A DNA stretch of 64,000 bases from a virus: IMG/VR virus record IMGVR_UViG_3300017767_005578, positions 9-64,008 of that record; one strand, 5' to 3'. A model generated the notes under the pieces. That model saw only the letters and a list, made by a program, of their open reading frames with translations. It was not told the DNA's origin and searched no databases. Below, piece after piece: positions 7,370-64,000 of the stretch (position 1 is the first letter of the stretch; the number at the start of each line of letters is the position of its first letter). The translations under genes and the position numbers were made by a program.

Positions 7370-7374
7370 GATAT

Positions 7375-13166: not shown

Positions 13167-13228
13167 TGTAATAGAGTTTTATATTATTGGCTCACTTTAT
13201 AGGCTGAGCTAATTACCTTTTTACTAAG

Positions 13229-19621: not shown

Positions 19622-20008
19622 TTGTGTTTAAATAAAATTAAAATTAAAATGAAACTAGAGGATATTAAGGACGTAAAGGTTCGCAGGTATGTGCGTGGTC
19701 TTCAGCTAAAGCTTGAGGAGTTTGAGGCAAATACCACTAAGGTTAAATCTTTTTTAGCTTTAAAAAACTTTATTACGCAGAACAATAAGCTGCTGACTAA
19801 TTATCGTGTATCGGATTCAGCGGATGAGCTTTCAGACAAGGAGGATAAAGCGTTGGAAAGGGGTTTAAAATTTTCGGAGAAGCTTGATTATCTACAGACG
19901 TTGTTGGATAAGATGTATGGAGAGATAGGAGAGATTCCTGAAGAGCAAGGGAAACAAAAAGCTGCTTCAGCGTATGAGCAGGTAATGAGGGATTTGAAAA
20001 ATGGGTAA
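19622..20008 (+). CDS. probable terminase small subunit
   Basis: Helical 128 aa, overlapping the start of terL; positional inference. Confidence 0.45.
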   Translation: MCLNKIKIKMKLEDIKDVKVRRYVRGLQLKLEEFEANTTKVKSFLALKNFITQNNKLLTNYRVSDSADELSDKEDKALERGLKFSEKLDYLQTLLDKMYGEIGEIPEEQGKQKAASAYEQVMRDLKNG

Positions 20009-22088
20009 GTTGTCTACAAGGGCGATGAGGTCCGTTAATTTTAAAAGAGTTAGAGAGATAACGTTAAATGGGAATATTGAGTTTACTGTTGATCTTCCTA
20101 ATCCTCCTGCATATTATAAGATTGCTAATTGGGATAAAAAAATAAAAGACCAGAGGTGGATGATTCCTGATTGGATTTTATCTCAACGGGATTTTGACAT
20201 GCTTGACATGGATAATCAGATTGATTATTTAAAGCAGGTCACTCACCACAGGATAAATGGGTATTGGTTTTACAACAAGGGTACGATAGAGTATTTAACT
20301 GGCGACCATTTTTTTTATTTAGCATTTTGGAGGATTGATGGGATTGTTCCTTATTGGAAGGATAGCGATGCTACGTTTTTTTATATCGAGCGTCATTGTC
20401 AGATGTTGGATTCTTGTTTGGGTTGGATGCAGGTTACTAATCGTAGGGATGGTAAGACTGGTAAGGCTACTTCTATTATTTACAATCGGATTACGTTAAG
20501 TTATGATGCCAATGGAGGTATTCAGAGTAAGACGAATAAGGATGCCAGTATGATCTTCAAGAAGATGGTCAAGAGTTGGCAGAAGTTGCCTGATTATTTA
20601 AAGCCTGAAGATTCGGGTGACACTAATCCAAGTTCAGCGTTAAAGTTTGAAGAACCAGCCAAGAGGAGTACTAAGGGTGGTAAGAAGATTTACAAGGAGG
20701 TTTTGAACTCAATGATTGATTACAAGCCTTCTGTTGAGAATGCTTATGATGGTAATAAGTTGAAGTATTACTATGATGATGAGTATGGAAAAACTACTGA
20801 GGTGGATGTTAATGACCGTTGGCAGGTTGTCAAGGAGTGTTTGGTCCAGGGTAAGAATATTGTAGGAAAGAGTTTGCATACTACTACTGCCGAGGAGATG
20901 GAGGAAAAGGGTGGAGCTGCTGCTAAGGATATGTGGGATGACTCTAACATTTTGGAGTCTGAGGTTCAGGGCAGGGAGTTTACTGTTTCGGGATTGTTAA
21001 GGTGGTTTAAGCCTGCCACTCATGGTTTGGAGGGGTTTATAGATAAGTATGGATATAGTGTTGTTGAAGACCCTGCGAAGCCTGTTGTTGGCATTGACGG
21101 AAAGAAGATAGAGATAGGTAGTCTTACTTACATTAATCGTAGGAGAAAGGGGTTAACGGGAAATAAGTTAGCAGGAGAGAAGAGGAAGTATCCTTTGACT
21201 GTTGATGAAGCTTTTATTGAGGAGGGGAAGTTGAGTCCTTTTGATATTATTAAGTTGAATGATCAAATATCTTATAATGGCACACTTAATAATAAGGTCA
21301 TACAAGGAAACTTCGTATGGATAGACAGACATAATTTAGAGGTCGGTTGGCAGCCTTCGGTACATGGAAGGTGGAAGGTGTTATGGATGCCAGTTGTTGA
21401 TGACAGGAATAAGACGATACAAACTTCCAGGGGTTTAAAGCCTCGTAACTTTGATAAGTTTGTAGCAGGGTGTGACCCTTTTGACCATAAGGTAACTACG
21501 GATAATAAGAAGTCCAATGGAGCTAGTTATGTGTATAGGAAGTTAGACCCTTTTGACCAGGAGCAGAGTGATACTTTTGTTTGTGAGTATGTTAATCGTC
21601 CTGCCACTCCTGATATGTTTTATGAGGACATGATAAAGCAGTGTATTTTTTATGGTTGTGAGTTGTTGTGTGAGAACAATAAGATTGGTTTAATAAATTG
21701 GTTTGAGAACAATGGTTATGGTGGTTACTTAATGGACAGACCAGATTTCACTCATACTGATTATAGTAGGAAGCGTCAGAAGGAGAAGGGGATACCTATG
21801 AACTCGGAGGCTGTTCGTCAGAGGGCTATAGAAGTTACTGAAAGTTTTGTGTATGCTAATACTGGTTATGACTTCGAGAACAACATTTATGGGAAGGTTT
21901 TTTTTAATGATTTATTAAAGTGTTGGATAAAATTCAATCCTCAGAAGTGGACAGATTACGATGAGTTTGTTGCGGCTGCTTTGTGTCTTTTTGGTAAGGA
22001 AAGGTATGTAAGAAAAAAGACTCGAAAAAGCACTCGTTCTGTGGGTAGATTCATCAAAACATATAAGAGGCATGGGGGTTTCAAGTGA
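20001..22088 (+). CDS. terL: terminase large subunit
   Basis: Walker A NRRDGKT, Walker B YYYDDEYGK, nuclease AGCDPFD, terminal D-x-x-D-x-F/V-A-A motif (DYDEFVAA). Confidence 0.88.
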   Translation: MGKLSTRAMRSVNFKRVREITLNGNIEFTVDLPNPPAYYKIANWDKKIKDQRWMIPDWILSQRDFDMLDMDNQIDYLKQVTHHRINGYWFYNKGTIEYLTGDHFFYLAFWRIDGIVPYWKDSDATFFYIERHCQMLDSCLGWMQVTNRRDGKTGKATSIIYNRITLSYDANGGIQSKTNKDASMIFKKMVKSWQKLPDYLKPEDSGDTNPSSALKFEEPAKRSTKGGKKIYKEVLNSMIDYKPSVENAYDGNKLKYYYDDEYGKTTEVDVNDRWQVVKECLVQGKNIVGKSLHTTTAEEMEEKGGAAAKDMWDDSNILESEVQGREFTVSGLLRWFKPATHGLEGFIDKYGYSVVEDPAKPVVGIDGKKIEIGSLTYINRRRKGLTGNKLAGEKRKYPLTVDEAFIEEGKLSPFDIIKLNDQISYNGTLNNKVIQGNFVWIDRHNLEVGWQPSVHGRWKVLWMPVVDDRNKTIQTSRGLKPRNFDKFVAGCDPFDHKVTTDNKKSNGASYVYRKLDPFDQEQSDTFVCEYVNRPATPDMFYEDMIKQCIFYGCELLCENNKIGLINWFENNGYGGYLMDRPDFTHTDYSRKRQKEKGIPMNSEAVRQRAIEVTESFVYANTGYDFENNIYGKVFFNDLLKCWIKFNPQKWTDYDEFVAAALCLFGKERYVRKKTRKSTRSVGRFIKTYKRHGGFK

Positions 22089-22103
22089 GTTAAAATAATT
22101 GCT

Positions 22104-22111
22104 TACATTTG
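22104..22111 (+). promoter_or_regulatory. -7 element TACATTTG upstream of portal
   Basis: Matches Bacteroidota TAnnTTTG; related TATATTTA/TATATTAG at 16683, 18198, 24536, 28651, 48666. Confidence 0.4.
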
Positions 22112-22138
22112 TTAGTATAACTATTTTTTAGTAAGAGA

Positions 22139-24523
22139 ATGACAAAATCAAATACTAAGCTTCCTAATTTTCCGAATCCCACCTTATCTAAAGAGGAGAA
22201 ATCAACTAAAAAATACGGATTAGGTTGTGCGAAAGCGATATACGGAAAACACAGGGGTACTGATTGGTCGGTTTACAATAAAATCGCAAAGTTCGTAGAA
22301 AACAGAAAAGCAGCAGAGGGTTTAGCTAGTATTGACAAGTTCAAGGACTTGTTGGATTTGAATGGAGATTCTTCTTACTTAAATTTAGATTGGCAGTCGG
22401 TTTCTGTAGTTCCTAAGTTTGTTCAGTTGGTAGTTGGTGAAATGATTAACCAAGAGTTTAAGGTTAATGCGGTTGCTATGGATGAATCCTCAATGGAAAA
22501 ATTTGAGGAGGAGAAGAACAAGATATATGCCAATATGTTGATGGCTGAATTTTCTCAGAAGATGGAGGCTGAGACTGGTTTTTCTATGGTTGATAAATCT
22601 ATTCCAGTTCCGAAAGATTTGGAGGAGGCAGATGTTTTAATAGAGACAACTTTAAAGCAGGCTGTAGAAATAGCTATGGAGGTTTGTGTGTCTTTTGTTT
22701 TGCGTTCTAACAATTTTGACAAGGAGGTAAAGGAAAGGTTAATTAGAGATTTGGTGGTTATAAAGATATGTGCTACTAGAACTTATTTTGATGACAACAA
22801 CGACATTAAGTTAAGGTATGTAGATCCTGCTAATTTAGTTTTACCATATTCAAAAGACCCTTACTTTAGGGATACTCCTTATACGGGTGAGGTGTTAAAG
22901 ATGAGCTTTCATGATTTTGTTGCTTTGGTTGGTGATGAGATGACTGAGGAGCAGTATTATGATATTGCTAAAAGAGTTGGAAAGCAAAACATTAGTGTAG
23001 ATGGATTAACGCAAGAGAATGGTAGGTACTATCAGTCACCTTATTACGGTAGGGGTCAGGTTGATGATTTTTACATTGAGGTTTTAGATTTTGAGATTAG
23101 GTCCACTAATTACGAGTTGACTTATGAGCAAAAATACATTAGCAAAGGAAATTTTTTCTTAAACAAAAAGAAAACAGGTTACGAGCCTAAGAAGTATAGT
23201 AAGAAAAAAAGGGATGTAACCAGAAAGAAGGTAGAGGTTTTTTATGAGGGGTTATATGTTATAGGTTCTGATTATATCTATAAGTATGGTCTTCAGGAAA
23301 ACATGAATAGACCTAAGAAGAGTGGTGCTTACTGCTCTGAGGTTAAGAGTAGATATAGCATTATTGCTCCAGGCATGTATGACATGGAGAATAAGTCTAT
23401 GGTTGAGCAGATGTTACCTTTTGATAATCAGATGACTTTAGCTTATTTAAAGCTTCAGCAACAGATGATTAAGGCTAGACCAGCAGGTTTGGCTGTTGAT
23501 TCTTCTTCTTTGGAGGATGTGTTAAAAGGTAGAGGTGAGGATTTCCTAGACCCAACTGATATTGTAGAGATCTTTGATCAGACGGGTAACTTATATTACA
23601 GAAGTGAGGATTCGGAGTTTGGTGGGATGATTAATCAGAAGCCTATTCAGGAACTTGCTAATGGTCTTAGTCCAAGTGCTTTGTATTTCGTTGAGGTTTG
23701 GAATCACAACTTGAATATGATTAGGACAATTACGGGGTTGAATGAAGCTAGGGATGGTTCTACTCCTTCTTCTAAAGCTTTGGTTGGCGTTCAGAAAATG
23801 GCTGTAAATATGAGCCGTAATGCCACCAGGTCTTTAAACGATGCTTATATCCACAGTTTTAAATCATTGGCTGACAATATAGCTATGATGGTCCAGAATA
23901 AGGCTATTGCAGATGGGTTGAGAGGTTATGAATTGTCTTTAGGTAAAGAGGTTGTTGATGTTGTTAAAATAATAAAAGAGCTAAGTCTAGCGGAACTAGG
24001 CATAGAGATTGAAATACTTCCTAGTGCCGAAGAGATGCAAGAGTTAAATATTTTAATTGAGAAAGCTATAACGGCTCAATCTATAGAGCTGGAAGACGCT
24101 ATGGAGGTTAAGGATGTTGCTAAGGTTAATATCAAGAAGGCGACACACTTATTAAAGAAAAGAAGAAAAGAAAAGCAGGAGTCAGATATGGCTATAGCTA
24201 ATAACGCTTCACAACAGAACGCTCAAGCACAGATGCAGTCACAACAATCTGCTGCTCAGTCTCAGATGCAACTAAAACAAATGGAGCATCAAATGGACAT
24301 GGAGAAACTTCAAATGGAGTATCAGTTAAAGATGCAGTTAGAGCAGATGAAAGCCAGAACAAAAGGTATGGCAGACGCAGAGGTTGCTATGATTAATAAT
24401 GATGAAAAGTTAAAGCAGATAGATGCTGCTAAAAAGAATAATATTGATGATACTTCCATAGGTAATTCGGTGAGAGAGCCTCAAGTATTTAAGGGAGTGG
24501 GAGATAGCAGAAAATTAGATTAA
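22139..24523 (+). CDS. portal protein
   Basis: 794 aa directly after terL; LRYVDPANL, ITGLNEARDG, Gln-rich coiled-coil C-terminus as in crAss-like portals. Confidence 0.82.
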   Translation: MTKSNTKLPNFPNPTLSKEEKSTKKYGLGCAKAIYGKHRGTDWSVYNKIAKFVENRKAAEGLASIDKFKDLLDLNGDSSYLNLDWQSVSVVPKFVQLVVGEMINQEFKVNAVAMDESSMEKFEEEKNKIYANMLMAEFSQKMEAETGFSMVDKSIPVPKDLEEADVLIETTLKQAVEIAMEVCVSFVLRSNNFDKEVKERLIRDLVVIKICATRTYFDDNNDIKLRYVDPANLVLPYSKDPYFRDTPYTGEVLKMSFHDFVALVGDEMTEEQYYDIAKRVGKQNISVDGLTQENGRYYQSPYYGRGQVDDFYIEVLDFEIRSTNYELTYEQKYISKGNFFLNKKKTGYEPKKYSKKKRDVTRKKVEVFYEGLYVIGSDYIYKYGLQENMNRPKKSGAYCSEVKSRYSIIAPGMYDMENKSMVEQMLPFDNQMTLAYLKLQQQMIKARPAGLAVDSSSLEDVLKGRGEDFLDPTDIVEIFDQTGNLYYRSEDSEFGGMINQKPIQELANGLSPSALYFVEVWNHNLNMIRTITGLNEARDGSTPSSKALVGVQKMAVNMSRNATRSLNDAYIHSFKSLADNIAMMVQNKAIADGLRGYELSLGKEVVDVVKIIKELSLAELGIEIEILPSAEEMQELNILIEKAITAQSIELEDAMEVKDVAKVNIKKATHLLKKRRKEKQESDMAIANNASQQNAQAQMQSQQSAAQSQMQLKQMEHQMDMEKLQMEYQLKMQLEQMKARTKGMADAEVAMINNDEKLKQIDAAKKNNIDDTSIGNSVREPQVFKGVGDSRKLD

Positions 24524-50995: not shown

Positions 50996-51009
50996 ATTAA
51001 ATTTATAAA

Positions 51010-53910
51010 ATGCCAAATCAAAAAATTGAACTAATAGATGCTATAGCAATAGCAAGAGGAACGGAAGAACCAACTAATAGAGATGTTTTTTGGTTGGATA
51101 AAAGTTTAACGGGAGGTTTTTATGATAGGCTTAAATCTTACAACTACGACACTGAAAAGTGGGAATTGGTATCTAGATCCAATCAAGAAATTTTATCAGA
51201 CTTAAGGACTGTTGACGGTGCAGGCTCAGGGTTAGATTCTGACACCTTACAAGGTTATACTCCTGACCAGTTAATATCGCAAGGAGCTTCGGGATTACCT
51301 GCTATGTCTACTGGAAAGATAATAGTTGGACAAGGTGACACAATTGGACAAGCAAAAACATTAGGGGGGATAGCAACAATAGACGCTAATGGCTCTATGG
51401 CTTATGTAACTAATAGTATTAGCCACACAGGTCTAACTGATGTAGGAACAAACACCCATGTTCAAATAGATTCCCATATAGCAGATAGTGCAATACATTT
51501 AAGTGCTGCTCAATCTACTAAGCTAGGTCACATAAGTGTTACTCAAGCTGTAGACCTGGACCAAATGGAAACGGATATTACAGCTAATAATGCTAAACCT
51601 ACTAACAATCTAGCAACAGGGAATTTAACTCAAGCTGCTGCTGCTAGAACGTACAATATGAATAGCCAAGACCTTTTGTTTACAGATGGCTTTTTAAAAG
51701 TAACTGAAGCAGGAACTGGTGACATGTTTTATTTAGAACAAGGAGGAGGGGATATAACATTTGGTGGTGCAAGCGGTGTGGGTACAGGAGGATCTAACTG
51801 GATACATCAAACAAATTTTAACACCGCATCTTCTACAGTGTGGGAGCATAGAGATTTTGGAAACAACACAGGATTAAAGTTTGTAAACTGGACTACAACA
51901 GGCGGATTAAATCATTATGCTACATTAGAATACGGAGGCTCTGGAATTATGTATATCCTTCAAAACGGAGGAGGAGCAATACAGATGGGTTCTTCAACTA
52001 CTATAAATGTTGGTTATGGAACAGGAGCGCAACGCCCTGAGACTGTAAGGTTAATAGCAGGCGCAGGACAATTTGAAGTGTCTGGAACAAGTGGAGGGAC
52101 GGGTGCTACGACCTTTACGGATAACTCTAGCACAACAGCAGGGATTGAATATGCTGCTGATTATAGTTCAGACTTTACAGCAAGGAGTTTAGTGGACAAA
52201 GCTTATGTTGATGCTAATGCTGGGGGGAGTAATTTCGCCAATGCAGATTTGCAATTGACAGGGGATAGAAACCATGAGCTAAACAGTAATAAATTAATTT
52301 TTAGATGCAAATTAACCGCAAATGCAGATAGGATAGAGAGTTTTTACGACAATAATCCAGTAGGGGGTATGGTCGTTGATCACTACGATAAATTTGGAAC
52401 AAAAATGCACTCTATAAACAGGGATAGTTTTGAAAATTTAGCCTATGCGGTTGGTTATTTTCGTGCTGGTATGGATGTTGGTCCTAAGAGTGCAATTAAG
52501 ATGAGAGGCTTTTCTGGGACTGGTTCATATATTAAGTTCTCTAACCAGTTTGGTGACCCTTATTCTCAGATAGGTGCTAATATGCCTCATTACTTTTTAG
52601 CTGCTTCTGGAGCTTTGGCGACTAATAAATTTATTGTAGGTGAAAATTCTGCTGTAGGTAGTGAAAGTATTAGTTTACAAGGTTCGACATTAATAAAGGG
52701 AGAAGGAACTTCCACAGGTTCAACCTTAGCTTTATACGATAATGACACAACACCTTACAAAAGGTTTGAAATTTTAGACAATGGACAGTTTAGATTAGAT
52801 TCAAGTAATGCGGTTGTAGCAACACCTTTTAAAATTGAAATGCGACCATTAGGAGGAACGGGGACACCTCCTTACTTTATGATAAAAAACTATGGTGAAG
52901 TTGAGATTTATGGAGGGCTTTCAAATTTATTTAATGTCCAAAACACTTTAGGAGCAAAGCAATTTGAGGTGTTAAATGGCACAACAAAAATAAATGGTGC
53001 AAGTCAAATAAATTCAACATGGTTTCAAGTTTTAACAGACACTCAAAAAATGTCTTTTAATGCTGGAAGTGGAGGTGCGTTACACCACGAAATTAGAACA
53101 AATGGTGGTGGAGGTCCAATAACCACAAAATTTAATATACCAGGAGGTGGGTATCAATTTATCGTTGGTGCTTCTGCTATAATTGGTACTGAAAAAATAA
53201 GTTTACAAGGTTCGACATTAATAAAAGGAACTGATACGCTTTCAACATCATCAGCTTTACAGGTTTATGATGGGGATAGTACACCAAATTTATTAGTAGA
53301 TTTTAAAAATAGCGGAAATGTAGATATTAACGCAAATTGGAGAGCGAATGAAGGTACTTTAAAAATAAACAGTAATAATCAATCTTTTGTTGGAATGGGA
53401 TTGACTGATACAACAAATGGGTATTATGGTGGTTTCTTTTGGAGACCAACAACACAATATTTAACCATTGGTAGTAATACATCAGGTTTTGCTATTGAGC
53501 CAACAGCAAACAATCAAGACTTTGTTTTTACATCTTCGAGTTTTACAAGTGAAAATGAATTAATAGTAAATGATGATTTTACGTTAAACGGTAATCAAGA
53601 AGTAAATGCTAATTGGGTTGCAAGTAAAGGAACTATCAATATTAATTCAAGTAATCAATCTTTTAATGGTTTTGGGTTAACAGATACGGCTACTGGTTAT
53701 ATGGGGTTTTTTGGCTATCGACCTACTAATGATTATTTTGTAATAGAATCAACAAGTGCAATTAGTGGAATATCATTTAATACCAATGGAAATAATAGAA
53801 GAATGACCATTACTGATAACGGTTTAAATATTTCAAACTTACCTACTAGCTCTGCTGGTTTATCTAGTGGTGATGTTTACAACGATTCAGGAACTTTAAA
53901 AATAGTTTAA
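51010..53910 (+). CDS. tail fibre / receptor-binding protein
   Basis: 966 aa Gly/Thr-rich; SGLDSDTLQG, SLVDKAYVD, C-terminal LPTSSAGLSSGDVYNDSGTLKIV; internal repeats. Confidence 0.75.
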   Translation: MPNQKIELIDAIAIARGTEEPTNRDVFWLDKSLTGGFYDRLKSYNYDTEKWELVSRSNQEILSDLRTVDGAGSGLDSDTLQGYTPDQLISQGASGLPAMSTGKIIVGQGDTIGQAKTLGGIATIDANGSMAYVTNSISHTGLTDVGTNTHVQIDSHIADSAIHLSAAQSTKLGHISVTQAVDLDQMETDITANNAKPTNNLATGNLTQAAAARTYNMNSQDLLFTDGFLKVTEAGTGDMFYLEQGGGDITFGGASGVGTGGSNWIHQTNFNTASSTVWEHRDFGNNTGLKFVNWTTTGGLNHYATLEYGGSGIMYILQNGGGAIQMGSSTTINVGYGTGAQRPETVRLIAGAGQFEVSGTSGGTGATTFTDNSSTTAGIEYAADYSSDFTARSLVDKAYVDANAGGSNFANADLQLTGDRNHELNSNKLIFRCKLTANADRIESFYDNNPVGGMVVDHYDKFGTKMHSINRDSFENLAYAVGYFRAGMDVGPKSAIKMRGFSGTGSYIKFSNQFGDPYSQIGANMPHYFLAASGALATNKFIVGENSAVGSESISLQGSTLIKGEGTSTGSTLALYDNDTTPYKRFEILDNGQFRLDSSNAVVATPFKIEMRPLGGTGTPPYFMIKNYGEVEIYGGLSNLFNVQNTLGAKQFEVLNGTTKINGASQINSTWFQVLTDTQKMSFNAGSGGALHHEIRTNGGGGPITTKFNIPGGGYQFIVGASAIIGTEKISLQGSTLIKGTDTLSTSSALQVYDGDSTPNLLVDFKNSGNVDINANWRANEGTLKINSNNQSFVGMGLTDTTNGYYGGFFWRPTTQYLTIGSNTSGFAIEPTANNQDFVFTSSSFTSENELIVNDDFTLNGNQEVNANWVASKGTININSSNQSFNGFGLTDTATGYMGFFGYRPTNDYFVIESTSAISGISFNTNGNNRRMTITDNGLNISNLPTSSAGLSSGDVYNDSGTLKIV

Positions 53911-53919
53911 TAAATAAAT

Positions 53920-54267
53920 ATGATGATTAATAACAAAGAATATTACAAAATTACAGGAGAGGTTAATGCTGATTTCGGAATAACGGTAACAGACCCAATT
54001 ATTAAAGTATTTGTTACTGCTAAAGGCGTTGAAGATACAGGTCTTTTGCAATGTGAGTATAATGTATATTATTCTGAAGATAACTACTTAAATGGTGCTT
54101 ATTTTTTTAAAGCTTCCAAAGATGGTGAGAGAATGATTAATTTTACTTATCCAATTGCTGATGTTCCTAATTGGGGTTGGCAAACTTATAAGGATGACCA
54201 AAAGAAAATTATTGCAGATACTTTTGGAATTGATGTAGTAAATATAGAACTTGTACAAGAAGATTAA
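53920..54267 (+). CDS. tail fibre assembly-like protein
   Basis: 115 aa directly after the fibre gene; positional. Confidence 0.4.
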   Translation: MMINNKEYYKITGEVNADFGITVTDPIIKVFVTAKGVEDTGLLQCEYNVYYSEDNYLNGAYFFKASKDGERMINFTYPIADVPNWGWQTYKDDQKKIIADTFGIDVVNIELVQED

Positions 54268-54690
54268 ATGTATTTCGGAAACATATACCCATACTTCACA
54301 GAGGAAGAGATAAGAACTGCTTTAATAAGGCAAATTAAGCAATACAATCTTAATTATGTTATGCCTGCTTTTGAGGAGGCTTGGCAGAGTAAATTCTGGA
54401 GGGAAAAAGGCTATGATGGTGCTACGTTTATCCAAGATAAGACGCACCCTAGCGTAGATGCTTTTTTGCACGATTGGGGTTATAGGATATACGGTGGAAA
54501 CAAGTACGATGACTATGTGTTTTACAAGCTTCAGAAAATACTAAAAGATAAAGCTAAACGTAACTATATAGGTGTTAGGTTAGGTGGATTCTTTTTAAGA
54601 ATGAAAAACAAATATATACAGAAGAAGCCAGGAACTTCTACGGAAAACCTTATAAGGCTTTATGAAATACTAAAAAAAATTAAAATATAA
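54268..54690 (+). CDS. DUF1353-like protein
   Basis: DGAT...AFLHDWGYR...DDYVFY motif. Confidence 0.55.
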   Translation: MYFGNIYPYFTEEEIRTALIRQIKQYNLNYVMPAFEEAWQSKFWREKGYDGATFIQDKTHPSVDAFLHDWGYRIYGGNKYDDYVFYKLQKILKDKAKRNYIGVRLGGFFLRMKNKYIQKKPGTSTENLIRLYEILKKIKI

Positions 54691-54694
54691 TAAA

Positions 54695-54862
54695 ATGGAA
54701 CAATTAACAGAAGAACAGAAGGCTTACATTCAATTAATACAACTTTTAGATGCCGCTACTCAAAGAGGAGCTTTTTCTAGACACGAAGTATTATCTTATA
54801 ATAAATCATTAGGAATATTAGACAAACTTTTCGTAGAGAAAAATAAACAGCCTGAAGATTAA
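54695..54862 (+). CDS. small hypothetical protein (55 aa), absent from ORF track
   Basis: MEQLTEEQKAYIQLIQLLDAATQRGAF...; translated by hand. Confidence 0.55.
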   Translation: MEQLTEEQKAYIQLIQLLDAATQRGAFSRHEVLSYNKSLGILDKLFVEKNKQPED

Positions 54863-54877
54863 ATCAAACTTTAGGGT

Positions 54878-55201
54878 GTGTCTTTCGTTGTAAAAAGCAA
54901 AAGATTTTATTTTTCTATCTTTATGAGAAATGAGGGTGTAATGGATAATACTAATTTGGGTATTTTTATAAATACTGTTTTTTCTTTTTTCGGTTGGGGA
55001 TGTTTGAATCAGAATGTAGAAACGATAAAAGATAGTATTCCTTCATTAGATTATCTAAAAATCATAGTCACTCCAGCAGCCGAATCAGGCATAGATGTGA
55101 CAAGTAAAATATCTGTATTAGTACTAACTTTCCTTTCTATAATCACTTCTTCAATCACAATAGGTCAATTTATTTATAAGTTTTATAAGAAAAAAAAATA
55201 A
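54878..55201 (+). CDS. small membrane protein (holin/antiholin-like)
   Basis: Hydrophobic helices, basic C-terminal KKKK; precedes endolysin. Confidence 0.45.
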   Translation: MSFVVKSKRFYFSIFMRNEGVMDNTNLGIFINTVFSFFGWGCLNQNVETIKDSIPSLDYLKIIVTPAAESGIDVTSKISVLVLTFLSIITSSITIGQFIYKFYKKKK

Positions 55202-55210
55202 CCTAGTCAG

Positions 55211-55708
55211 ATGAAATATGAATGGAGTAAAAGAAGTAGGGGTGTTTTAGAAACACTTCATCCAGATTTACAATTAATAATAAACTTAGCAATACAGAGG
55301 ACATCTGTGGATATTGTGTTAGTGGAAGGGTCTAGGGATGTGTCTACTCAAAGAAGGTATTTCAAAGATGGTTTGAGCAAGATAGACCCAGATAAGTACA
55401 GGTCAGACGAGGACTTGTGTAAGGCTGCTAAACATATAACCATTGAAGATCATTCTTTGTATCATTATTCAAGAGCTGTAGATTTCTGTGCGTATGCTTT
55501 TCATAATGGCAAAAACTTAACCTACGACATGACACACTTAGTATACATATCCACTGTAATAGAGCAGAGTGGAAAAGACCTGTATTCAAGAGGTGTTACA
55601 TCTCATATAATAAGGACAGGAGTGAATTGGGATATGGATGGTATATTAAAGTTTGACCAATCGTTTTTAGATGCTCCTCATGTTGAAATAATAAAACCAA
55701 AGTTATGA
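55211..55708 (+). CDS. endolysin, M15 family L-Ala-D-Glu peptidase
   Basis: SKRS...LHPDL...EGSR...Q...GLSK, H...AVD, W..D....DAPHVE. Confidence 0.82.
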   Translation: MKYEWSKRSRGVLETLHPDLQLIINLAIQRTSVDIVLVEGSRDVSTQRRYFKDGLSKIDPDKYRSDEDLCKAAKHITIEDHSLYHYSRAVDFCAYAFHNGKNLTYDMTHLVYISTVIEQSGKDLYSRGVTSHIIRTGVNWDMDGILKFDQSFLDAPHVEIIKPKL

Positions 55709-56181
55709 AGAAGTTTACTGGATTTTTAAAGAAAGCTAAGGGGTTTTTAGCCACTAAAGGTAAAGATGTAGGTCAGTTAGCTATTAATGCTGCTACAGGT
55801 AACTTTAAGGGTGTTATAAAAGAGATTGGAGATGTATTAGGAACTGACTTATCAGAAGAAGGTAAAGCTTTATCAGAAGAGTTCCAGTTAAAGATAAAAG
55901 AGTTTGAGGTAGAGCATGATAGATTAATGATGGAAGATAGGAAGTCTGCTAGAGATATGCAGAAAGAATCTTTAAAACAAGGTGGAAAGCTTTCTAAAAA
56001 TTTTATTTATTATTTAGCTGCTTTTTGGAGTGTTGTTGGAGCTACCTTCATGATATTTTCTTTCTTCATAGTTGTTCCAGAGGGTAACACACACTTAGTA
56101 GATACTTTAGAAGGGTTTATACTTGGTAATATAGTGGCTTCTATTATAGCGTTCTTTTACGGAGGGATGAACAAGAATTAA
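55705..56181 (+). CDS. holin
   Basis: DRKSARDMQ motif followed by two TM helices ending FFYGG. Confidence 0.65.
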   Translation: MKKFTGFLKKAKGFLATKGKDVGQLAINAATGNFKGVIKEIGDVLGTDLSEEGKALSEEFQLKIKEFEVEHDRLMMEDRKSARDMQKESLKQGGKLSKNFIYYLAAFWSVVGATFMIFSFFIVVPEGNTHLVDTLEGFILGNIVASIIAFFYGGMNKN

Positions 56182-56495
56182 TCGTCACCAAATAATTTAC
56201 AGTAAAGCAAGTAGTTATGTTCTCTGACTATTTGCTTTTTTGTTTTGGACCAAGTAAAGTTTCTTTTAGTTTCTAGATCTCCTGTTTCCCATTCCATGTG
56301 GTGTTCTGCACATAGAAGTTCTATGTTGTCTTTGTTTAACCTAAGCTCAGGTGTTCTTCCTTTGGTTAGTATATGAGAAAAGAATATTGGTTGAGGTTTG
56401 TTTCCTAGCTTTTTACCACAGTTAGCACATACATGTTTTCGTTCTTTCCATATCTCCATAAACATTTCCCATTCTCCTGTTTTTTTTCTACTCAT
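56178..56495 (-). CDS. HNH/NinG-like endonuclease
   Basis: CANC...SHIL.KG..PELRLNKDNIELLCAEHH. Confidence 0.75.
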   Translation of the reverse strand: MSRKKTGEWEMFMEIWKERKHVCANCGKKLGNKPQPIFFSHILTKGRTPELRLNKDNIELLCAEHHMEWETGDLETKRNFTWSKTKKQIVREHNYLLYCKLFGDD

Positions 56496-56695
56496 TAAAA
56501 CATGTTCTTTTTATGGTCAGGATTGGATTTAAAATACTCGTCTTTTATCTCTACTGATTTATGTATATAAAATGTGTAACCATCAGGAGAGGTGTTTTTA
56601 CAAGTAACAAATGTTTCATCAATCTTACACACTTCGTATTCTTCTCCTTTGTAGGTAAAGACATCTCCTTTTTTTAAATGTAAAATTTTACTCAT
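56495..56695 (-). CDS. small hypothetical protein
   Basis: ORF track. Confidence 0.5.
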   Translation of the reverse strand: MSKILHLKKGDVFTYKGEEYEVCKIDETFVTCKNTSPDGYTFYIHKSVEIKDEYFKSNPDHKKNMF

Positions 56696-56709
56696 GCTAA
56701 AATGTTTAT

Positions 56710-56734
56710 AAAAAAAAGAGGGTTTTACCCCTCC
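56710..56734 (-). terminator. intrinsic terminator
   Basis: GAGGG/CCCTC stem followed by T-run on the minus strand. Confidence 0.5.
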
Positions 56735-57870
56735 TTATAATTTTTAATGTTCACTCTAAAAGTAGCTCTTTTTCCTTCAGGGCGTTTATTAAGTATTCTA
56801 CCATTGTCTCCAAAAGAGATAACCTCATCATACTTAGAGAAAGCCATAATCTTTTGCTTTAGCTTGTCCTTGGTTTTTTCAAGCAAAGCTATATCATCTG
56901 TACAAGTTTTATACTGTACAGCTATATCCCATTCTTCCTCTTCTCCTTTTCTAGATGTGTCTTCGTAAGATACTTTATACTTGTCTTTATAAAACTCTAA
57001 ATAAGCTTCGTTTCCTGACGGCTCTGGTTCTATGTCTGTTATTTGCCTATCTATCTCCAGCTCATCACCTTCAGAGTTGTATATGTCTCTAGCCATAGTC
57101 ACACGATTCCAGAACTCATAAGACTTTACGATAATCTCTTGACATAATTCTAGGTCCATGTCTAAAGGCAATACATTAAAGTCCACACCTGCTACTAGGT
57201 ATGCAAGTTCAGAGTATGTAATACCTAACACTATCATTTGAAGGTTTGTTTGAACTACGTACCTGTGTGGTATTCCTAGTTCATACTTCTCTGCTGCGAA
57301 CTGAGAAACCATCTTTATTTCTAGAGAAGCGTCTGACTCGATTACCTCACCTGTAAAGGGTGAAACCTGTCCTCCTGGGATAAAGAAGTCTAAGGAAGCT
57401 GATAAATGCGGATAGTTGATGTTTACAGCGTAACAAGGGATAGGAACTTTAGTTCTAATCTTTTTAGCTTGCGTCCAGTTATCTACCCAACCTGTTTCAG
57501 TTCCATCGTAGAACTCCCATAGGTCTGATATTTTCTCCTCAAAGTGCAAACCGTTTACAGTAAACTTTGTTGCAAAGGGAGGTATGTCGTAATCTATCTT
57601 ACTTCTGAAAAGTTTTACAGAATCACCATACTCATCCATTTCTATAATTGTAGCTATCTCTGATGATCCTATTGTATTTTTTCTAAACGAATACCAATCT
57701 TCATTTCTTTTACCTTCAATAAACTGAGGGATAAAAAAACCGTATACATCTTCTTTTATTTGTTTAGCGTACTTAGCGTATTCTCCTAAGTGTGCGATTT
57801 CCTCTGGTAGGTTACACCCAAGATTATCTAATGATAAATCTATTTTATTCATTTCCAATGTTGTTGACAT
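56725..57870 (-). CDS. YqaJ-like (lambda-Exo family) exonuclease
   Basis: WYSFRKNTIGSSEIATI, G..FE, LSASLD, LEIK, YVVQTNLQM. Confidence 0.85.
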   Translation of the reverse strand: MSTTLEMNKIDLSLDNLGCNLPEEIAHLGEYAKYAKQIKEDVYGFFIPQFIEGKRNEDWYSFRKNTIGSSEIATIIEMDEYGDSVKLFRSKIDYDIPPFATKFTVNGLHFEEKISDLWEFYDGTETGWVDNWTQAKKIRTKVPIPCYAVNINYPHLSASLDFFIPGGQVSPFTGEVIESDASLEIKMVSQFAAEKYELGIPHRYVVQTNLQMIVLGITYSELAYLVAGVDFNVLPLDMDLELCQEIIVKSYEFWNRVTMARDIYNSEGDELEIDRQITDIEPEPSGNEAYLEFYKDKYKVSYEDTSRKGEEEEWDIAVQYKTCTDDIALLEKTKDKLKQKIMAFSKYDEVISFGDNGRILNKRPEGKRATFRVNIKNYKEG

Positions 57871-57950
57871 ATTAATTGTAGATTAAAGAAACGGGCTTCA
57901 CCTACTCCCGTTTTGAATTAAGGCTTCTTTATAACTGCTACGTGTAATAT

Positions 57951-58610
57951 TTAAAAAGGTAAATCGTCATCCTCCTCATACGAAGGCTCTTCTTTTTTTG
58001 TTTCTAATGGCTTTGATTTTAAAAAGTTATCTACTTCTTCCGCTGCTTGTTTTAGTTCAGGAGAAACGGTGTTTAGTATGTTGTCCTCAGCAGGTTTTAA
58101 TTGAGAACACATTTCTTTAAGCTTTTCATGAAGCTCGAAACGGTCATAGTCTGTTCTATCTCTAAGCTTTGTTACCTTAGTCAATTCCATTTGCTCTTCG
58201 ATACTAAGTTTCCACTTAGGTCTGTCATCTCCGTTTATCGTTAGATAAGCTGTTGGAAATGATTTACCGTCTTTAGATCTTGTTGCTAATGAAATCTTAA
58301 TCAATCCTAACTCTGGGTAAGAGGAAAGTGTATTAAGAATACCTCTACCCACCATGCTTAGTGATGATTCAATAACATAGTCCATACCGTCATCGGTAAT
58401 GGTAAGATTAAAAACTTCTGTTTTGTCGCCTTTATATTCATTAACCTGAAAGTTAATAGATTTAAAATAGCCACTAACAAATGTTTCGCTTTGTGTGTGC
58501 TGATACTTTCCTGTTTCAGCGTTCTTCTGATAAACCTTAAACACTGGTTTTTCTTCTTTAGTGTTTAGTTTTAAATAAGTCTTCGGAGCATTATCTCTTC
58601 CTAGTCCCAT
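57951..58610 (-). CDS. probable single-stranded DNA-binding protein
   Basis: Acidic C-terminal tail EEDDDLPF; beta-rich; located between exonuclease and primase-helicase. Confidence 0.6.
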   Translation of the reverse strand: MGLGRDNAPKTYLKLNTKEEKPVFKVYQKNAETGKYQHTQSETFVSGYFKSINFQVNEYKGDKTEVFNLTITDDGMDYVIESSLSMVGRGILNTLSSYPELGLIKISLATRSKDGKSFPTAYLTINGDDRPKWKLSIEEQMELTKVTKLRDRTDYDRFELHEKLKEMCSQLKPAEDNILNTVSPELKQAAEEVDNFLKSKPLETKKEEPSYEEDDDLPF

Positions 58611-58638
58611 AATATATAAAATTTAATTGTTTACTAAT

Positions 58639-60684
58639 TTAATAAGGAGGTTCTTCTGGTCTACTGTCCTTGAAAACCGTTCCCTTGTTGTAATTGTTAA
58701 TACCTTCTGCTTCAGAGGGTTGTTGCTGTTCAAATACGTAATCATCAAAGTTTGGTCTTTCATCTTTCGTACTGACAAATTCTTCCCCTAAGATAGTCTT
58801 TTTAAACCATCCTCGCAAAGGACTTTCGTTGTCAGAATCATAAAAACTGAAAAAATCTCTATGCTTACCTCTACCCATATTCAGGAGTACAGGGCTATCC
58901 ATTGGAGTTTCTAAACCGCCAGTATGTTTTGACTTTACTTTTTTAACAGCTATCTGTGTTTGGTTTCTTAATTCCTCAACAAACTTGTATCTATGAACTA
59001 ATAACATGTGGGTGCATTTGTTTTCCCATACTACACCATCAGCAAGGTCAGCAGCATTCAACGGAGCAGGATTACCTTTTAAATCTCCTGATTGATGAAC
59101 TCTTCGTGCTGACTCTGTATTGGAGTGCATACCTATGTATAAAGACATATTCTTATGCTTACACCACTTCTGTAGCTTGGTGGCCACTTGAAGTGTGTAT
59201 TGATAAGTATTAAGCTTTCTGTCAACCTCTGTATAATCCACAGTTAAAGCGTTCCAAGGGTCTATAAACAGATAATCAAACTTACCCTTTTTAGCCTCTA
59301 TCTTTTCAACCATACTAAGAATATCCAAGTAGCTTAACATATCTTCTGTTTCTATAAAAGCAAAGTTTTTGTCAAGGTATTTCAATCCTTTGTCTATATG
59401 TTGTTTGGGTATGTCTTTAACTTTTTCACCATACAAAAACTCAAGCACAAATACCTTAAGTTCCCATGCAGGATTCTCGGTGCTGTATATGATGACACGC
59501 TTACCATGAAGGGCATTAGCTAGAGCAAAAAGAAAACAAGCGATAGTGGTTTTACCTAAACCTGCCGTACCTCCTATAATATCAAAAGCTTGGTCCTTAA
59601 ACCTATAATGCCTATCTAAGTCTTTATACCCTGTTGATAGTCCCATTGGTATCTTACCACTAGCAAAGTCATGTATATAAGAGTTAGCCTCATCACCTAC
59701 AATAAACTCATGGGTGTTATCAACCTCAACAGGCTCATCTTTGGTTTTATACTTAGACTCTGGATTAGTTCCATAGCCCATATCTCTAAGCTCCCTAGCA
59801 GCTTGTTTAGGGTCTCCTCCGCATTGTAGTACTGTGTATATTCCAAAAGGACTATATGATCTAGTGCTATCAAATATTGAAGATGTGCTAAACACTCTAA
59901 GCAAGTTGTGTGCTATTGAAAAGTTACCCGATGTAGGGCTGTTGCTTCCTGGTCTTACAACTGGTATTTTCTCATTCTTCACTTCTTTTAATTCCCAACC
60001 ATGACTTTCCATAACCATTTTCCAATGGTGGTTGTCATCGTTATAAGCATCCCAAGGCGGTATCCCTACGCTGTTATATACAACTTGTGGCTTCTCTTGA
60101 AATACGGGAGGTAGAATCTCATCAAAAGTTCTACAACAAGCAAAAAGAGTATCTCTTTCTTTTTGGGTAATTAACTTTAAATTAAGAAGTTTACCTTGCT
60201 CTATCTCGTAACCTTCAGAAGGGTGGCAAACAACATAAGCGTTGGCTGACCTAGTTTCTAAAAGCACTAACCTTTTTTGTCCTTCTTTAGCTTCCTTTTC
60301 TGTAGGTTCTCTTTGAGCAAGTTTAACACTTCCCTCTTGTTTTCCTTCCACTTTGTATAAAAGGTGAAAGCCTTTGTTTTTTGTTGTCGATATAGTTAGC
60401 TTTTTCCAAAGTCCAGGACAGAAGAGTTCTACTCTGTCTTCTAAAAGCTCCATAAAGTCACCCTCTCCTATCCAGTATTTAGCGTCTACATCTACAACTT
60501 GAACACCTGCTATCTCACCTGTTACAAGTCCTACAGATTGAAACTCAGATATGTCGTCACCTAGTTTGTAAAGTTCTTTGGTGTATTTCTGCCAAGAACT
60601 TATGTTGGGTATTTTATTTTTTTTAAGCGGTATTATGCTATACCCTCTACCTAAGAGGGATTCAAGTTTGTCTCTAGTAATCAT
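58639..60684 (-). CDS. primase (Prim-Pol type)-DnaB-like helicase fusion
   Basis: GYSIIPL..KIP...W, VGLVTG..VVDVD, LLETR; Walker A GGTAGLGKTT, Walker B FIDPWN. Confidence 0.85.
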   Translation of the reverse strand: MITRDKLESLLGRGYSIIPLKKNKIPNISSWQKYTKELYKLGDDISEFQSVGLVTGEIAGVQVVDVDAKYWIGEGDFMELLEDRVELFCPGLWKKLTISTTKNKGFHLLYKVEGKQEGSVKLAQREPTEKEAKEGQKRLVLLETRSANAYVVCHPSEGYEIEQGKLLNLKLITQKERDTLFACCRTFDEILPPVFQEKPQVVYNSVGIPPWDAYNDDNHHWKMVMESHGWELKEVKNEKIPVVRPGSNSPTSGNFSIAHNLLRVFSTSSIFDSTRSYSPFGIYTVLQCGGDPKQAARELRDMGYGTNPESKYKTKDEPVEVDNTHEFIVGDEANSYIHDFASGKIPMGLSTGYKDLDRHYRFKDQAFDIIGGTAGLGKTTIACFLFALANALHGKRVIIYSTENPAWELKVFVLEFLYGEKVKDIPKQHIDKGLKYLDKNFAFIETEDMLSYLDILSMVEKIEAKKGKFDYLFIDPWNALTVDYTEVDRKLNTYQYTLQVATKLQKWCKHKNMSLYIGMHSNTESARRVHQSGDLKGNPAPLNAADLADGVVWENKCTHMLLVHRYKFVEELRNQTQIAVKKVKSKHTGGLETPMDSPVLLNMGRGKHRDFFSFYDSDNESPLRGWFKKTILGEEFVSTKDERPNFDDYVFEQQQPSEAEGINNYNKGTVFKDSRPEEPPY

Positions 60685-60989
60685 TATTTATATTTTTCAG
60701 CAAACTTTCTTAAACCATTAATCTCCTCTTCTTCTATATTACCCTCGTTATCTATTTTATTAATAAACTCTAGCAGCCCTTCTGATAGTAGTACATGTTG
60801 TTTAAGCAGTTCTGATACGGCTTCTACGTACCTTAATCTAAACTCTGCTTCTTTTTTATATCTATTGTAGGCTTTAGGGTCTTTCGGGGTAAAATTTCCT
60901 TTCTCTAACGCTCCTAATGAGTTAAGCTTTGCTTCACATTGGTCAATTAAGTAATCGTTACCTTTTTGGATTTTATCTATTAAGTTCAC
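60684..60989 (-). CDS. hypothetical protein
   Basis: ORF track; coupled to neighbours. Confidence 0.55.
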   Translation of the reverse strand: MNLIDKIQKGNDYLIDQCEAKLNSLGALEKGNFTPKDPKAYNRYKKEAEFRLRYVEAVSELLKQHVLLSEGLLEFINKIDNEGNIEEEEINGLRKFAEKYK

Positions 60990-60992
60990 TGT

Positions 60993-61634
60993 CTATTCTT
61001 TTTTATCAAACTCATAAAAATAACCATCTTCTACAGCCCATTTGTGAGCATTCTCACAGAAGAACTCATGGGTGCTTACCTTGAAGTCTGGCGGAGTTAG
61101 TTTATTTGATGTCAAAGACTGATCATAGAATAAAACCCTGTTGTTTGGTTGAGCAGCAAACTGACCGTTATCCATCTTTATAATATTAAAAGACTTGTGT
61201 TCGTTAGGTGTTTGCGAAAGGCTCACATTTAATTCATTAGGCTCTGAATGACAGCTATCAATAGTAAATAGATAATAACCCTTGTGGAACTTTTTATCTT
61301 TCATATACACTTGACAGTCTATATTCTTTAATATTGTTTTTTCAATGACAGTTATATTATACGAAAAACAATCCCATATTTGCAAGTAATCTAATGGAAC
61401 AAATGTATCAACATCAACGTCTTTTTTCCAGACAAAAGCTGATATAGGTAGTTTATCATATAAAGCTCCGTATTCAGTTAGGTAGGCTTCAATGTAAAGT
61501 GCTTTTCCTAATATGGACTTTACACTTACCCAATAACATGGTTCATAATCTCCATGTCCTTCGTCAAAATCATACAGGTATTCTCTTCTGACATAACACT
61601 GTATCTGTGGTAGGTTGGCTACTAGATAACTCAT
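60993..61634 (-). CDS. conserved aquatic-phage protein (YLVANLP..CYVRREYLYD family)
   Basis: Family motifs incl. QIWDCFSY, HK..NIIKMDNGQFAAQPNNR; function unknown. Confidence 0.65.
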   Translation of the reverse strand: MSYLVANLPQIQCYVRREYLYDFDEGHGDYEPCYWVSVKSILGKALYIEAYLTEYGALYDKLPISAFVWKKDVDVDTFVPLDYLQIWDCFSYNITVIEKTILKNIDCQVYMKDKKFHKGYYLFTIDSCHSEPNELNVSLSQTPNEHKSFNIIKMDNGQFAAQPNNRVLFYDQSLTSNKLTPPDFKVSTHEFFCENAHKWAVEDGYFYEFDKKE

Positions 61635-62263
61635 TTTTTATTATTGACAACATATTCAGTAATAAAAGTCTTAAGTTCTTCGGTAGGCATGGTAACCATA
61701 AACTCTGCTAGGTCTTTGTATTTACCCTCATGGTCGTATCTTTTAAAAGCAGGAGTTAATTGTAGTCTGGTAATACCGAACATCTTTAATCCGTCAGCTA
61801 TTTTTTTCAAGTCAGATACTTTTCTATCGTCTGTAATAAAACTAAGGTCTAACTTCTTGGTGTTTTTCTTAGCTTTCTCCGTAAGGAATTTTCCTTTGGA
61901 AACTTTTTCTTTCTTCTCAACAGTGCCTAACTTTTCTTTAGCGTTACTAACTTCTTCTTTAGAGGCGTAGTTCTCGTTATCACCAATACCTAATGCTCTG
62001 AATGCCCTTCCTATTGCAGAGGTCTCGGCATTCTCTACCCAGCTTGTTTTGTTGATGTTGTTAGTACCTTCTCTTTCAGAAGCTATTCCTGTTGCTACAA
62101 CCTTACCTGAGCCGTTGAGTATCTCACACTTAATAATAACCTGATGCTTACCGTCAATAACACAGGTGTCTAGTAAGTGTGTGGTGATTTTATGGGTTGA
62201 AAATTCTTTTTTAAATATAGCTTGTCGTTCAGCTACTTTCTGATAGTCTTCGTTATAAGTCAT
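61631..62263 (-). CDS. single-strand annealing protein (Sak/Rad52/ERF-like)
   Basis: VATGIASE...SWVENAETSAIGRAF..LGIG motif; same module as the YqaJ exonuclease. Confidence 0.65.
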   Translation of the reverse strand: MTYNEDYQKVAERQAIFKKEFSTHKITTHLLDTCVIDGKHQVIIKCEILNGSGKVVATGIASEREGTNNINKTSWVENAETSAIGRAFRALGIGDNENYASKEEVSNAKEKLGTVEKKEKVSKGKFLTEKAKKNTKKLDLSFITDDRKVSDLKKIADGLKMFGITRLQLTPAFKRYDHEGKYKDLAEFMVTMPTEELKTFITEYVVNNKK

Positions 62264-62387
62264 AAGTCTTCTTGATTGATTTTCGTATTAATTTAGCAAC
62301 AGATACCTTCTTTTGTTTTGCTAGTTCTTTTAGCTTAACAATTACGTCACCCTCTACCCTTATCTGGAACTTTCTATCTTTATTCAT
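62253..62387 (-). CDS. ribbon-helix-helix (CopG-like) protein, 44 aa, absent from ORF track
   Basis: KFQIRV strand, KLKELAKQKKVSVAKLIRKSI helices; ATGA coupling with upstream gene. Confidence 0.65.
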   Translation of the reverse strand: MNKDRKFQIRVEGDVIVKLKELAKQKKVSVAKLIRKSIKKTYDL

Positions 62388-62770
62388 TTTGTTTTTGGAT
62401 TAGCTTTACTTTTTAATTTCTTAGCTTGTTCTTTTGTTACTTTCAAAACCTCACCAGATATTAAGTCTTTAATAAAGTACTTAAGATCTATAAGTTGTTC
62501 AATATTAATATCAGCCATATCCTTAAATATCTCTTCGTATATTTTCTGAATATCCTGAACAAGCTTAACTTCTTTTTCGTTTTTGTGCATAGCACGTTCT
62601 ACGGGGAGTGTTTTCTTTTCAAGTTCTGAAAGAAATTTATTCCCATAATATTTTAATTCTTTAGACCATATTGGGGTTTCTTTAAGGTCTTCAATGTTTT
62701 CCAACATTATAATAGCGTTGGACATAAAAGAGGTGCATAGCCTCTTGTGTTTATTAATAGCTGCTTCCAT
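62384..62770 (-). CDS. hypothetical helical protein
   Basis: ORF track. Confidence 0.55.
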   Translation of the reverse strand: MEAAINKHKRLCTSFMSNAIIMLENIEDLKETPIWSKELKYYGNKFLSELEKKTLPVERAMHKNEKEVKLVQDIQKIYEEIFKDMADINIEQLIDLKYFIKDLISGEVLKVTKEQAKKLKSKANPKTK

Positions 62771-62921
62771 ATTTGTTCATGTTTCCAAGATTGGGTTTAC
62801 TTATTTTTTTTATCATAAATGTGTCACATTTAGGACACTTAACTTTTGTTTTATAAGACTGTACTAGCTTGTCTTTAACTTCGGTTTTGCAATTTTCGCA
62901 AATGTAATCGAATATAGGCAT
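62754..62921 (-). CDS. FmdB-like zinc-ribbon protein (55 aa), absent from ORF track
   Basis: MPIFDYICENC...VKCPKC pattern. Confidence 0.65.
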   Translation of the reverse strand: MPIFDYICENCKTEVKDKLVQSYKTKVKCPKCDTFMIKKISKPNLGNMNKYGSSY

Positions 62922-63100
62922 ACTTAATTGTTTGTTGCTTGATACGTATATATTATTTCAATAGTGACATCTTTATTGCACTTTTCGCATATAAATTTTG
63001 AATCCTCTACGTACCAGTCTGAGTCACAGCATTCTGTTTTAATTTGTTTTAAAGCTTTTTCTGCGTCCACTATACTAAATATTAAATTCTGTTAGTTTTT

Positions 63101-63388
63101 TCATAATCCTGTTTCTTCTATTATTACTATTAATTCCTCTAGTAGTTGCTTTTGAGCCTCTTCGTATCCTTTGCAGTATGGATACCTTGTGCCTATTGTG
63201 TTTTTTGGTCTGTGGTAAGTACCCCTTGCATATATTTTGTAGCAATATTCACTGCCTGTTTTTTCTATCCAAGAAACATACCCCCATCTTCTTCTGAACC
63301 AATCAAAGACCTTGCAGTATGTTACATTATCATCGTATCCTAACTGTCTAACAGCAGATAATTCTTTAGTAGTTATTACATCACTCAT
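63101..63388 (-). CDS. hypothetical protein (start likely MSDV)
   Basis: ORF track; VFDWFR..WG...YEEAQ motif. Confidence 0.55.
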   Translation of the reverse strand: MSDVITTKELSAVRQLGYDDNVTYCKVFDWFRRRWGYVSWIEKTGSEYCYKIYARGTYHRPKNTIGTRYPYCKGYEEAQKQLLEELIVIIEETGL

Positions 63389-63609
63389 ATAAAACAGTTT
63401 AAAACTCTTCAGGTTTTCCAAGGAAAATACTCATAATTCACTTATACTTAAAGCTCCGTAAACGTATAGCACCCAATCTCCAAACTAACACTCTTGGTCG
63501 TGCATTCGCTTCTTAATTAGCCTGAAGAGTTTTGTTAAATTAATCTAATTCACTATCAATGATTGATTCTGTTGCTAAATCATTAACATACTCCTCTAAA
63601 AAGCACATG

Positions 63610-64000
63610 TTAAAAGGAATATACCGCTGCCAGAACTATGCTAGACAGGTTGTCCTTTTGCTCAAATACTTGCTCACTTGCTTTGTCTAATCTATACTCT
63701 AACTTTAGATTCATATTCTCTATTGCATAATCCAAAGTAGTAGTAAAGTTTATAACATTAGCGTCTGCTCCAATTGCTCCAACTCCACTTCCAACTTCAG
63801 CGAAGTACTCACCTCTCAACCCTGCGGTTAATTTACCAAAAGAATATTGAGGATACAAAGCTGCTCCATAAAAACCGTTGCCATCAGTGTCATTATATGT
63901 AGAATTTATTCCTAAATAAAATTTCTCTGACAAGTCATAACCACCTGTTAAGTCAATCTGGAACGTAGCTTCAGAGCTAGGATCTTGCTTTCCTAATAAA
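63610..64000 (-). CDS. outer-membrane beta-barrel porin (BBP2/OmpL-like), 5' part outside the window
   Basis: Frame open to the window edge; amphipathic strands, LRGEYF, KLEYRLD, terminal AAVYSF. Confidence 0.7.
   Translation of the reverse strand, partial: LLGKQDPSSEATFQIDLTGGYDLSEKFYLGINSTYNDTDGNGFYGAALYPQYSFGKLTAGLRGEYFAEVGSGVGAIGADANVINFTTTLDYAIENMNLKLEYRLDKASEQVFEQKDNLSSIVLAAVYSF

Follow-up and report, generated by a model that had tools for sequence, protein, structure and literature searches.

The 64,000-bp window (the whole stretch of DNA analysed here, bases 9-64008 of a 64,031-bp IMG/VR record, IMGVR_UViG_3300017767_005578) breaks off at its right end within the gene of an outer-membrane porin. 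We consider it probable that this porin is the phage-borne third gene of a glnK-amt-porin ammonium-uptake cassette, in the ~67-kb genome of a tailed phage of marine Flavobacteriaceae. Comparison with related contigs shows the regulator, the inner-membrane ammonium channel and the outer-membrane porin to form a phage-borne, conserved and intact unit.

The porin frame runs on the minus strand from 63999 to a stop codon at 63610-63612, with its 5' end open at the window edge (63610..64000; 129 codons plus stop, from the ORF and Pfam annotations). The 129-residue fragment has the C-terminus ...SSIVLAAVYSF, i.e. the ...LAAVYSF ending with aromatic last residue of a beta-signal, and it matches Pfam family BBP2 (PF07642, described as 'putative beta-barrel porin-2, OmpL-like') with an E value of 4.4e-20 and 72.7 bits (cut-off 26.2). 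These results confirm the first-pass annotation of this DNA, made from the letters alone, which had seen a BBP2/OmpL-like porin in a frame that reaches the window edge and ends in AAVYSF. The match is far above chance and covers positions 196-339 of the 339 in the profile, by which measure the fragment amounts to the C-terminal 40% of the protein; the missing 5' part of ~200 codons lies past the ends of both the window and the record. The fragment is 98% identical to the full-length, 329-aa porin of contig L099, and it keeps all 18 of the residues that prove invariant in its region when 52 viral and host porins are aligned. The N-terminus that the window lacks is found in relatives 94-98% identical in the common part, and consists of MKK, a hydrophobic run and then ...SYGQ. 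No PHROG family matched the porin. No homologue of it was found in the phage genomes deposited in GenBank, and the porin group therefore belongs to phages that are still uncultured.

To the right of the window the record has only 23 further bases, all still porin, and the question of host or phage was therefore answered from relatives. A 52-mer from the porin was used for exact-match scans; it had no match in genome contigs or in viral contigs and one in metagenome contigs, a 3193-bp contig (L002) with the order amt (409 aa), porin (329 aa), a homologue of orf95 (the small gene that follows the porin, treated below) and another gene. L002 is 91% identical to window positions 63085-64000. IMG/VR yielded about 30 porin loci (25 distinct sequences) at 72-98% identity, among them a 62,158-bp contig (G001; CheckV 98%, 'linear') with 94% nucleotide identity to the window and colinear with it in circular permutation. 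G001 1-10494 corresponds to window 54267-63999 and G001 13427-62158 to window 1-50421, while the intervening 2.9 kb of G001 (10494-13427), not in the window, hold two small ORFs, glnK, amt and the first 200 porin codons. Window 50421-54267 is in turn the stretch absent from G001. The same join of the window's two ends occurs in L099, L121, L102, L116 and L113, which come from other metagenomes. As far as these alignments go, the window and G001 close a circle of about 67 kb that contains no host DNA. Because the circle closes without a host segment, the comparison shows the porin to lie inside the phage genome, in its leftward early/replication arm and co-oriented with its neighbours. For the phage of this particular record, the presence of the cassette is deduced from relatives 90-98% identical to it, together with L002.

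Two other explanations for a porin at this position had been raised at first sight, a prophage/host junction and a misassembly, and neither holds up well. The reading that the porin belongs to the host chromosome, with a prophage/host junction at the window's right end, would agree with the IMG/VR class of the record ('provirus', CheckV completeness 92%), with the gene's place at the record's extreme edge, and with the porin-amt pair being a conserved chromosomal arrangement in Flavobacteriaceae. We nonetheless hold it to be very improbable. Beyond the edge, close relatives have phage DNA on both sides of the cassette: in G001, L099, L121, L102, L116 and L113 it is flanked on either side by DNA colinear with the window. 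The viral genes are at most ~60% identical to those of the 80 best host loci and 72-98% identical among phages, and the pipeline cut lies at the record's left edge rather than at its right. Of the marks of an integrated prophage (integrase, att/tRNA target, chromosomal genes beyond the junction) none was found: tyrosine integrase (PF00589) is absent from this record and from four related records, there is no tRNA in the window, and a comparison of the right end with the remainder of the window for att-type repeats, direct or inverted, gave nothing longer than chance-level 11-13-mers. The only recombinase of this kind present is a resolvase-type serine recombinase (231 aa, 3249-3944), with which some form of lysogeny is conceivable. 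An assembly chimera of host and phage reads has in its favour that contig ends are where chimeras are commonest; yet the junction of porin, hairpin and orf95 recurs at 70-100% identity in more than 20 independent contigs from different metagenomes, the 3.2-kb contig of an unrelated assembly among them, so that we give this explanation almost no weight. The suggestion of the first-pass annotation that a phage-encoded porin would be an auxiliary nutrient-uptake candidate gains support instead, as the porin lies directly downstream of glnK and amt in the relatives; for its other suggestion, a receptor-altering factor, nothing specific was found.

The record's edges bear on its 'provirus' label. 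At the left edge is a 50-aa ORF (window 1-145, minus strand) whose stop codon begins at the record's first base; next to it on this other side of the cassette is a 115-aa ORF (126-473, minus strand). Because record base 1 falls on the last base of that stop codon, we take the left edge to be where the pipeline cut, between genes; the right edge, which breaks the porin mid-gene, we take to be a natural contig end. When the record start is aligned to L098 and L121, these relatives continue past the 50-aa and 115-aa ORFs with two small ORFs and then directly with glnK-amt-porin; the 50-aa ORF is in relatives the last recognisably phage gene ahead of the small ORFs and the cassette. The label is most likely an artefact, produced when a host-like cassette was trimmed as host flank. 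In the simplest reading, drawn from the relatives, the parent contig had wrapped round, and glnK, amt and porin were removed as 'host flank'. A multi-gene host-like cassette can in this way make virus-mining pipelines label a free phage 'provirus' and trim the cassette, and auxiliary cassettes so trimmed would be under-counted in viral catalogues.

That the replicon is a tailed phage is shown by its hallmark genes for large terminase subunit and portal (20001..24523, plus strand; phrog_6681, E 1e-102, and phrog_6547, E 3e-109). The nearest deposited TerL proteins, those of Flavobacterium and Cellulophaga phages, are 31% identical, and the terminase thus points to phages of Flavobacteriaceae. 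Next to the porin, as had been noticed from the sequence at the outset, and co-oriented with it is a replication/recombination module identified by PHROG matches (56725..62263, minus strand), with a RecE-like exonuclease (56725-57870, minus strand), a primase/helicase (58639-60684, minus strand), a 213-aa phrog_3704 protein (labelled ferredoxin; 60993-61634, E 1e-90) and a phrog_11717 protein. Besides the serine recombinase named above, the early arm also encodes a 215-aa protein with a C-terminal Cpn10/GroES domain (1977-2624) and a C5 cytosine methylase (7684-8571).

The window itself contains only the 3' part of the porin, and the one-strand order glnK, amt, porin was read in relatives. In G001 the P-II protein has 112 aa (Pfam P-II, E 6e-20), the Amt 409 aa (Pfam Ammonium_transp, E 2.5e-117) and the full-length porin 329 aa (BBP2, E 6e-62, 210 bits). 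Alignment of the viral Amt with Amt channels of solved structure (E 3e-76) spans the whole protein, both conserved histidine motifs included, and in the viral GlnK, read by eye, Y50 seems to correspond to the tyrosine of the T-loop that is uridylylated. At 38 nt upstream of glnK there is a -7 box of Bacteroidetes type, TAACTTTG, and between amt and porin a G+C terminator-like hairpin. The order glnK-amt-porin is present in about 25 viral contigs, and every viral contig with enough flank has it; no viral contig has the porin without amt, except where the contig ends.

The cassette occurs on at least five different phage backbones: (i) that of the window-like phages; (ii) that of L105, L107 and L108, whose replication proteins, on the other side of the cassette, are 28-45% identical; (iii) that of L117; (iv) that of L119/L120, with TerL at 24% identity; and (v) that of L109 and L111 (103-172 kb), in which the flanks carry phage DNA-polymerase-exonuclease and RNA-ligase genes. 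Backbone and cassette do not always agree in their identities. The backbone proteins of L116 and L113 are 81-99% identical to those of the window (most 90-98%), whereas their cassette proteins are only 74-86% identical to those of G001; L100, in turn, combines a different backbone with a G001-like cassette (glnK 100%, porin 95%). Because of these discordances we judge that the cassette is exchanged between phages. A pair with and without the cassette was also found, L120 and L096, both flanks of which are 79-84% identical: where L120 has glnK-amt-porin (8319-11047), L096 has an unrelated 177-aa ORF (6006-6539). Another record (G002; IMGVR_UViG_3300030110_003801, 128,733 bp) has two cassettes, with porins at 52376-53362 and 97190-98161, 44.8 kb apart and respectively 94% and 76% identical to that of L002; two phages may have been joined into a chimera here, or one large phage may have both copies.

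For host relatives of the porin 185,579 species genomes were scanned, from which the 80 best loci were returned. The porin is common in species-representative genomes of Flavobacteriaceae, and viral and host porins are 57% identical in the best tblastn segment and up to 60% in full-length alignment. The statement of the first-pass annotation that such porins often neighbour ammonium-transport genes proved correct for Bacteroidota chromosomes, as amt is present in the fetched locus, and mostly adjoins the porin, in 71 of the 80 best. Homologues of orf95 or of any other window protein were absent from these 80 loci, orf95 being sought within 10 kb of the porin. The chromosomal glnK-amt-porin operons of Flavobacteriaceae, such as Galbibacter, Joostella and Salegentibacter, share with the phage cassette the gene families, their order and strand, and the invariant residues; they differ from it in that their porins are 50-60% identical to the phage porin and that neither phage genes nor orf95 are nearby.

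A tree built from 107 porins unites the 25 viral sequences and that of L002 in a single clade (SH-aLRT 100) on a stem of 0.35 substitutions per site, and the window fragment falls inside it. The viral clade is placed within Bacteroidota, close to Galbibacter/Joostella, Salegentibacter and Aquimarina. The Amt tree agrees, its viral members being one clade (support 100) embedded in Flavobacteriaceae genes. The order in the nearest host clades is glnK-amt-porin, as in the phages, while a larger, more distant clade has porin-glnK-amt. Trees and gene order together show derivation of the cassette from a Bacteroidota operon of the same gene order; because the nearest host clades have the phage order, the data would fit one capture en bloc and later spread from phage to phage. 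Outside the viruses, the porin nearest to the viral clade, on a long branch, is that of an 18-kb contig (L008; JBLIBC010000022.1) binned as Glaciecola sp., which bears a Bacteroidota-type glnK-amt-porin and was probably mis-binned in this gammaproteobacterial MAG; no proteins of the window phage were found on it.

All three cassette genes are under strong purifying selection, with median pairwise dN/dS in the viral clade of 0.09 for glnK, 0.06 for amt and 0.09 for porin. The porin fragment of the window has values of 0.08-0.19 against its relatives (0.08 against L002).

An AF2 model of the porin was built on a full-length relative with the 52-sequence alignment (pLDDT 81.6, pTM 0.78). It has a signal-like N-terminal helix (residues 2-17) and 16 strands, with a long loop containing a short helix after strand 5. 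Foldseek matched the model to BpsOmp38, PorB, OmpF and Omp32 with TM scores of 0.6-0.66 at 10-14% identity; no PDB sequence was matched when the porin alignment was used as a search profile. The four known porins are like the model in their 16 strands and in a long inward loop after strand 5, and unlike the phage porin in sequence, at the identities just given, and in Pfam family, the phage protein belonging to BBP2. Across viral and host porins 73 alignment columns are invariant, including a motif in the loop (around S141-H151).

What AmtB and GlnK are established to do, and the linkage of the genes in hosts, allow a role for the cassette to be proposed. Early in infection, the phage would make its own porin, inner-membrane Amt channel and GlnK gate. 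The porin would be exported by a putative Sec signal peptide and inserted by way of the C-terminal beta-signal ...VYSF, and with Amt and GlnK it would make up a complete ammonium route through two membranes. Ammonium import would be increased or secured, providing nitrogen for nucleotide and protein synthesis in nitrogen-poor seawater. It is the gene linkage that suggests ammonium as the substrate of the porin.

In other systems, phages are known to encode outer-membrane proteins by which other phages are excluded, and the phage porin might instead have been selected for outer-membrane remodelling, a receptor being displaced or masked against superinfection, or as an unspecific pore, with the linkage to amt merely inherited. 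Such a role would suit the predicted fold, which is that of general diffusion porins, and the BBP2 family, which has no member with a known substrate; moreover, the terminator-like hairpin between amt and porin could allow the porin to be expressed differently. Several observations speak against it. The viral porin always comes with glnK-amt unless the contig ends, and the three genes have been kept together through transfers onto at least five backbones. All host-invariant residues are kept in the viral porins, including the motif of the predicted constriction loop, and the porin has a dN/dS as low as that of amt, whereas divergence from the host type would be expected of a protein that masks a receptor. 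We therefore regard a role outside ammonium uptake as unlikely, and prefer that of third gene in an ammonium-uptake cassette.

Viral P-II genes adjoining amt have been described (Roux et al. 2016, bioRxiv 10.1101/053090), and so has the cassette with its porin. Gazitúa et al. (2021, ISME J, PMC8115048) reported two 'PII-1' viral contigs with glnK, amtB, a terminator and then an ompL porin, and found the PII-Amt-OmpL association to be confined to Flavobacteriales; their viral porin was a predicted beta-barrel whose substrate was left unassigned, and pN/pS for glnK was not computable. The PII-1 cassette is like the present one in its glnK-amtB-OmpL order, in its contigs with phage hallmarks, in its Flavobacteriales affinity, in the terminator-like hairpin after amtB and in the predicted beta-barrel porin. 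Likened in this way by gene order and description, the two show no difference in kind, and the phage studied here is a further example of a cassette already published. New relative to that work are the closed map of ~67 kb that places the cassette in the early arm; its occurrence on at least five backbones, including contigs of 100-170 kb, and in a phage pair with and without it; the monophyly of viral porin and Amt; and the dN/dS values for the cassette genes. The closed map confirms that phages of marine Flavobacteria carry regulator, inner-membrane channel and outer-membrane porin, and the presence of one viral clade on several unrelated backbones points to phage-to-phage exchange. A further comparison is offered by Ostreococcus tauri virus, for which, according to ref. 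118 of PMC8115048, a host-derived ammonium transporter was shown to raise ammonium uptake of infected cells. As described there, that case resembles the present one in a virus-carried Amt taken from the host and in the proposed gain of uptake, and differs in involving a eukaryotic virus and a single gene, the description including no P-II regulator and no outer-membrane component.

Directly downstream of the porin stop is a hairpin (63401..63533, minus strand), an inverted repeat with perfect 13-bp arms, AAAACTCTTCAGG / CCTGAAGAGTTTT (63401-63413 / 63521-63533), and 107 nt between them. Its RNA fold has a z score of -2.4. Rfam at gathering threshold found no family in the window, and a permissive search of 62900-64000 gave chance-level hits only (rli51, E 1.2; ceN69, E 2.9). 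Alignment of the region between porin and orf95 in seven phages showed identical hairpin arms with a short loop in L121, a long loop insert in L002 in common with the window, and in L098, L101 and L105 another G+C hairpin with a T run after it; the 107 nt may have entered a terminator loop as a small insertion. An integron-like attC reading of this hairpin was set aside on a comparison of arms, which are unlike the GTT...AAC-type arms at 548-710, 997-1224 and 6582-6701.

After the porin and this hairpin comes orf95 (63101..63388, minus strand), a small phage-specific protein of 95 aa. Translation probably starts from the ATG at 63388 (MSDV...) rather than from the TTG at 63421, which is inside the hairpin arm. 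Homologues, 43-100% identical, adjoin the cassette in most viral contigs; in L109 and L110 the gene is upstream of the cassette, L111, L112 and L118 lack it, and L096 has it without the cassette. Pfam and PHROG gave no match for orf95, and the ESM Atlas returned viral hypothetical proteins only, with scores below 0.9. The dN/dS of 0.15 indicates purifying selection. The gene may mark a variable slot, or act as a homology arm for exchange of the cassette. More speculatively, the BBP2 porin could be a dedicated ammonium channel that makes the two-membrane path complete and self-regulated, the block moving as a unit between unrelated Flavobacteriaceae phages (~65 kb to >170 kb) by recombination at a variable slot beside orf95; we consider this fuller scheme doubtful. 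Within it, orf95 may be a fourth functional partner, e.g. one that uncouples viral GlnK/Amt from nitrogen signalling of the host. Just downstream of orf95 in L100 is a 218-bp piece (7872-8089) that is 88% identical to window 998-1215, although the two backbones are different.
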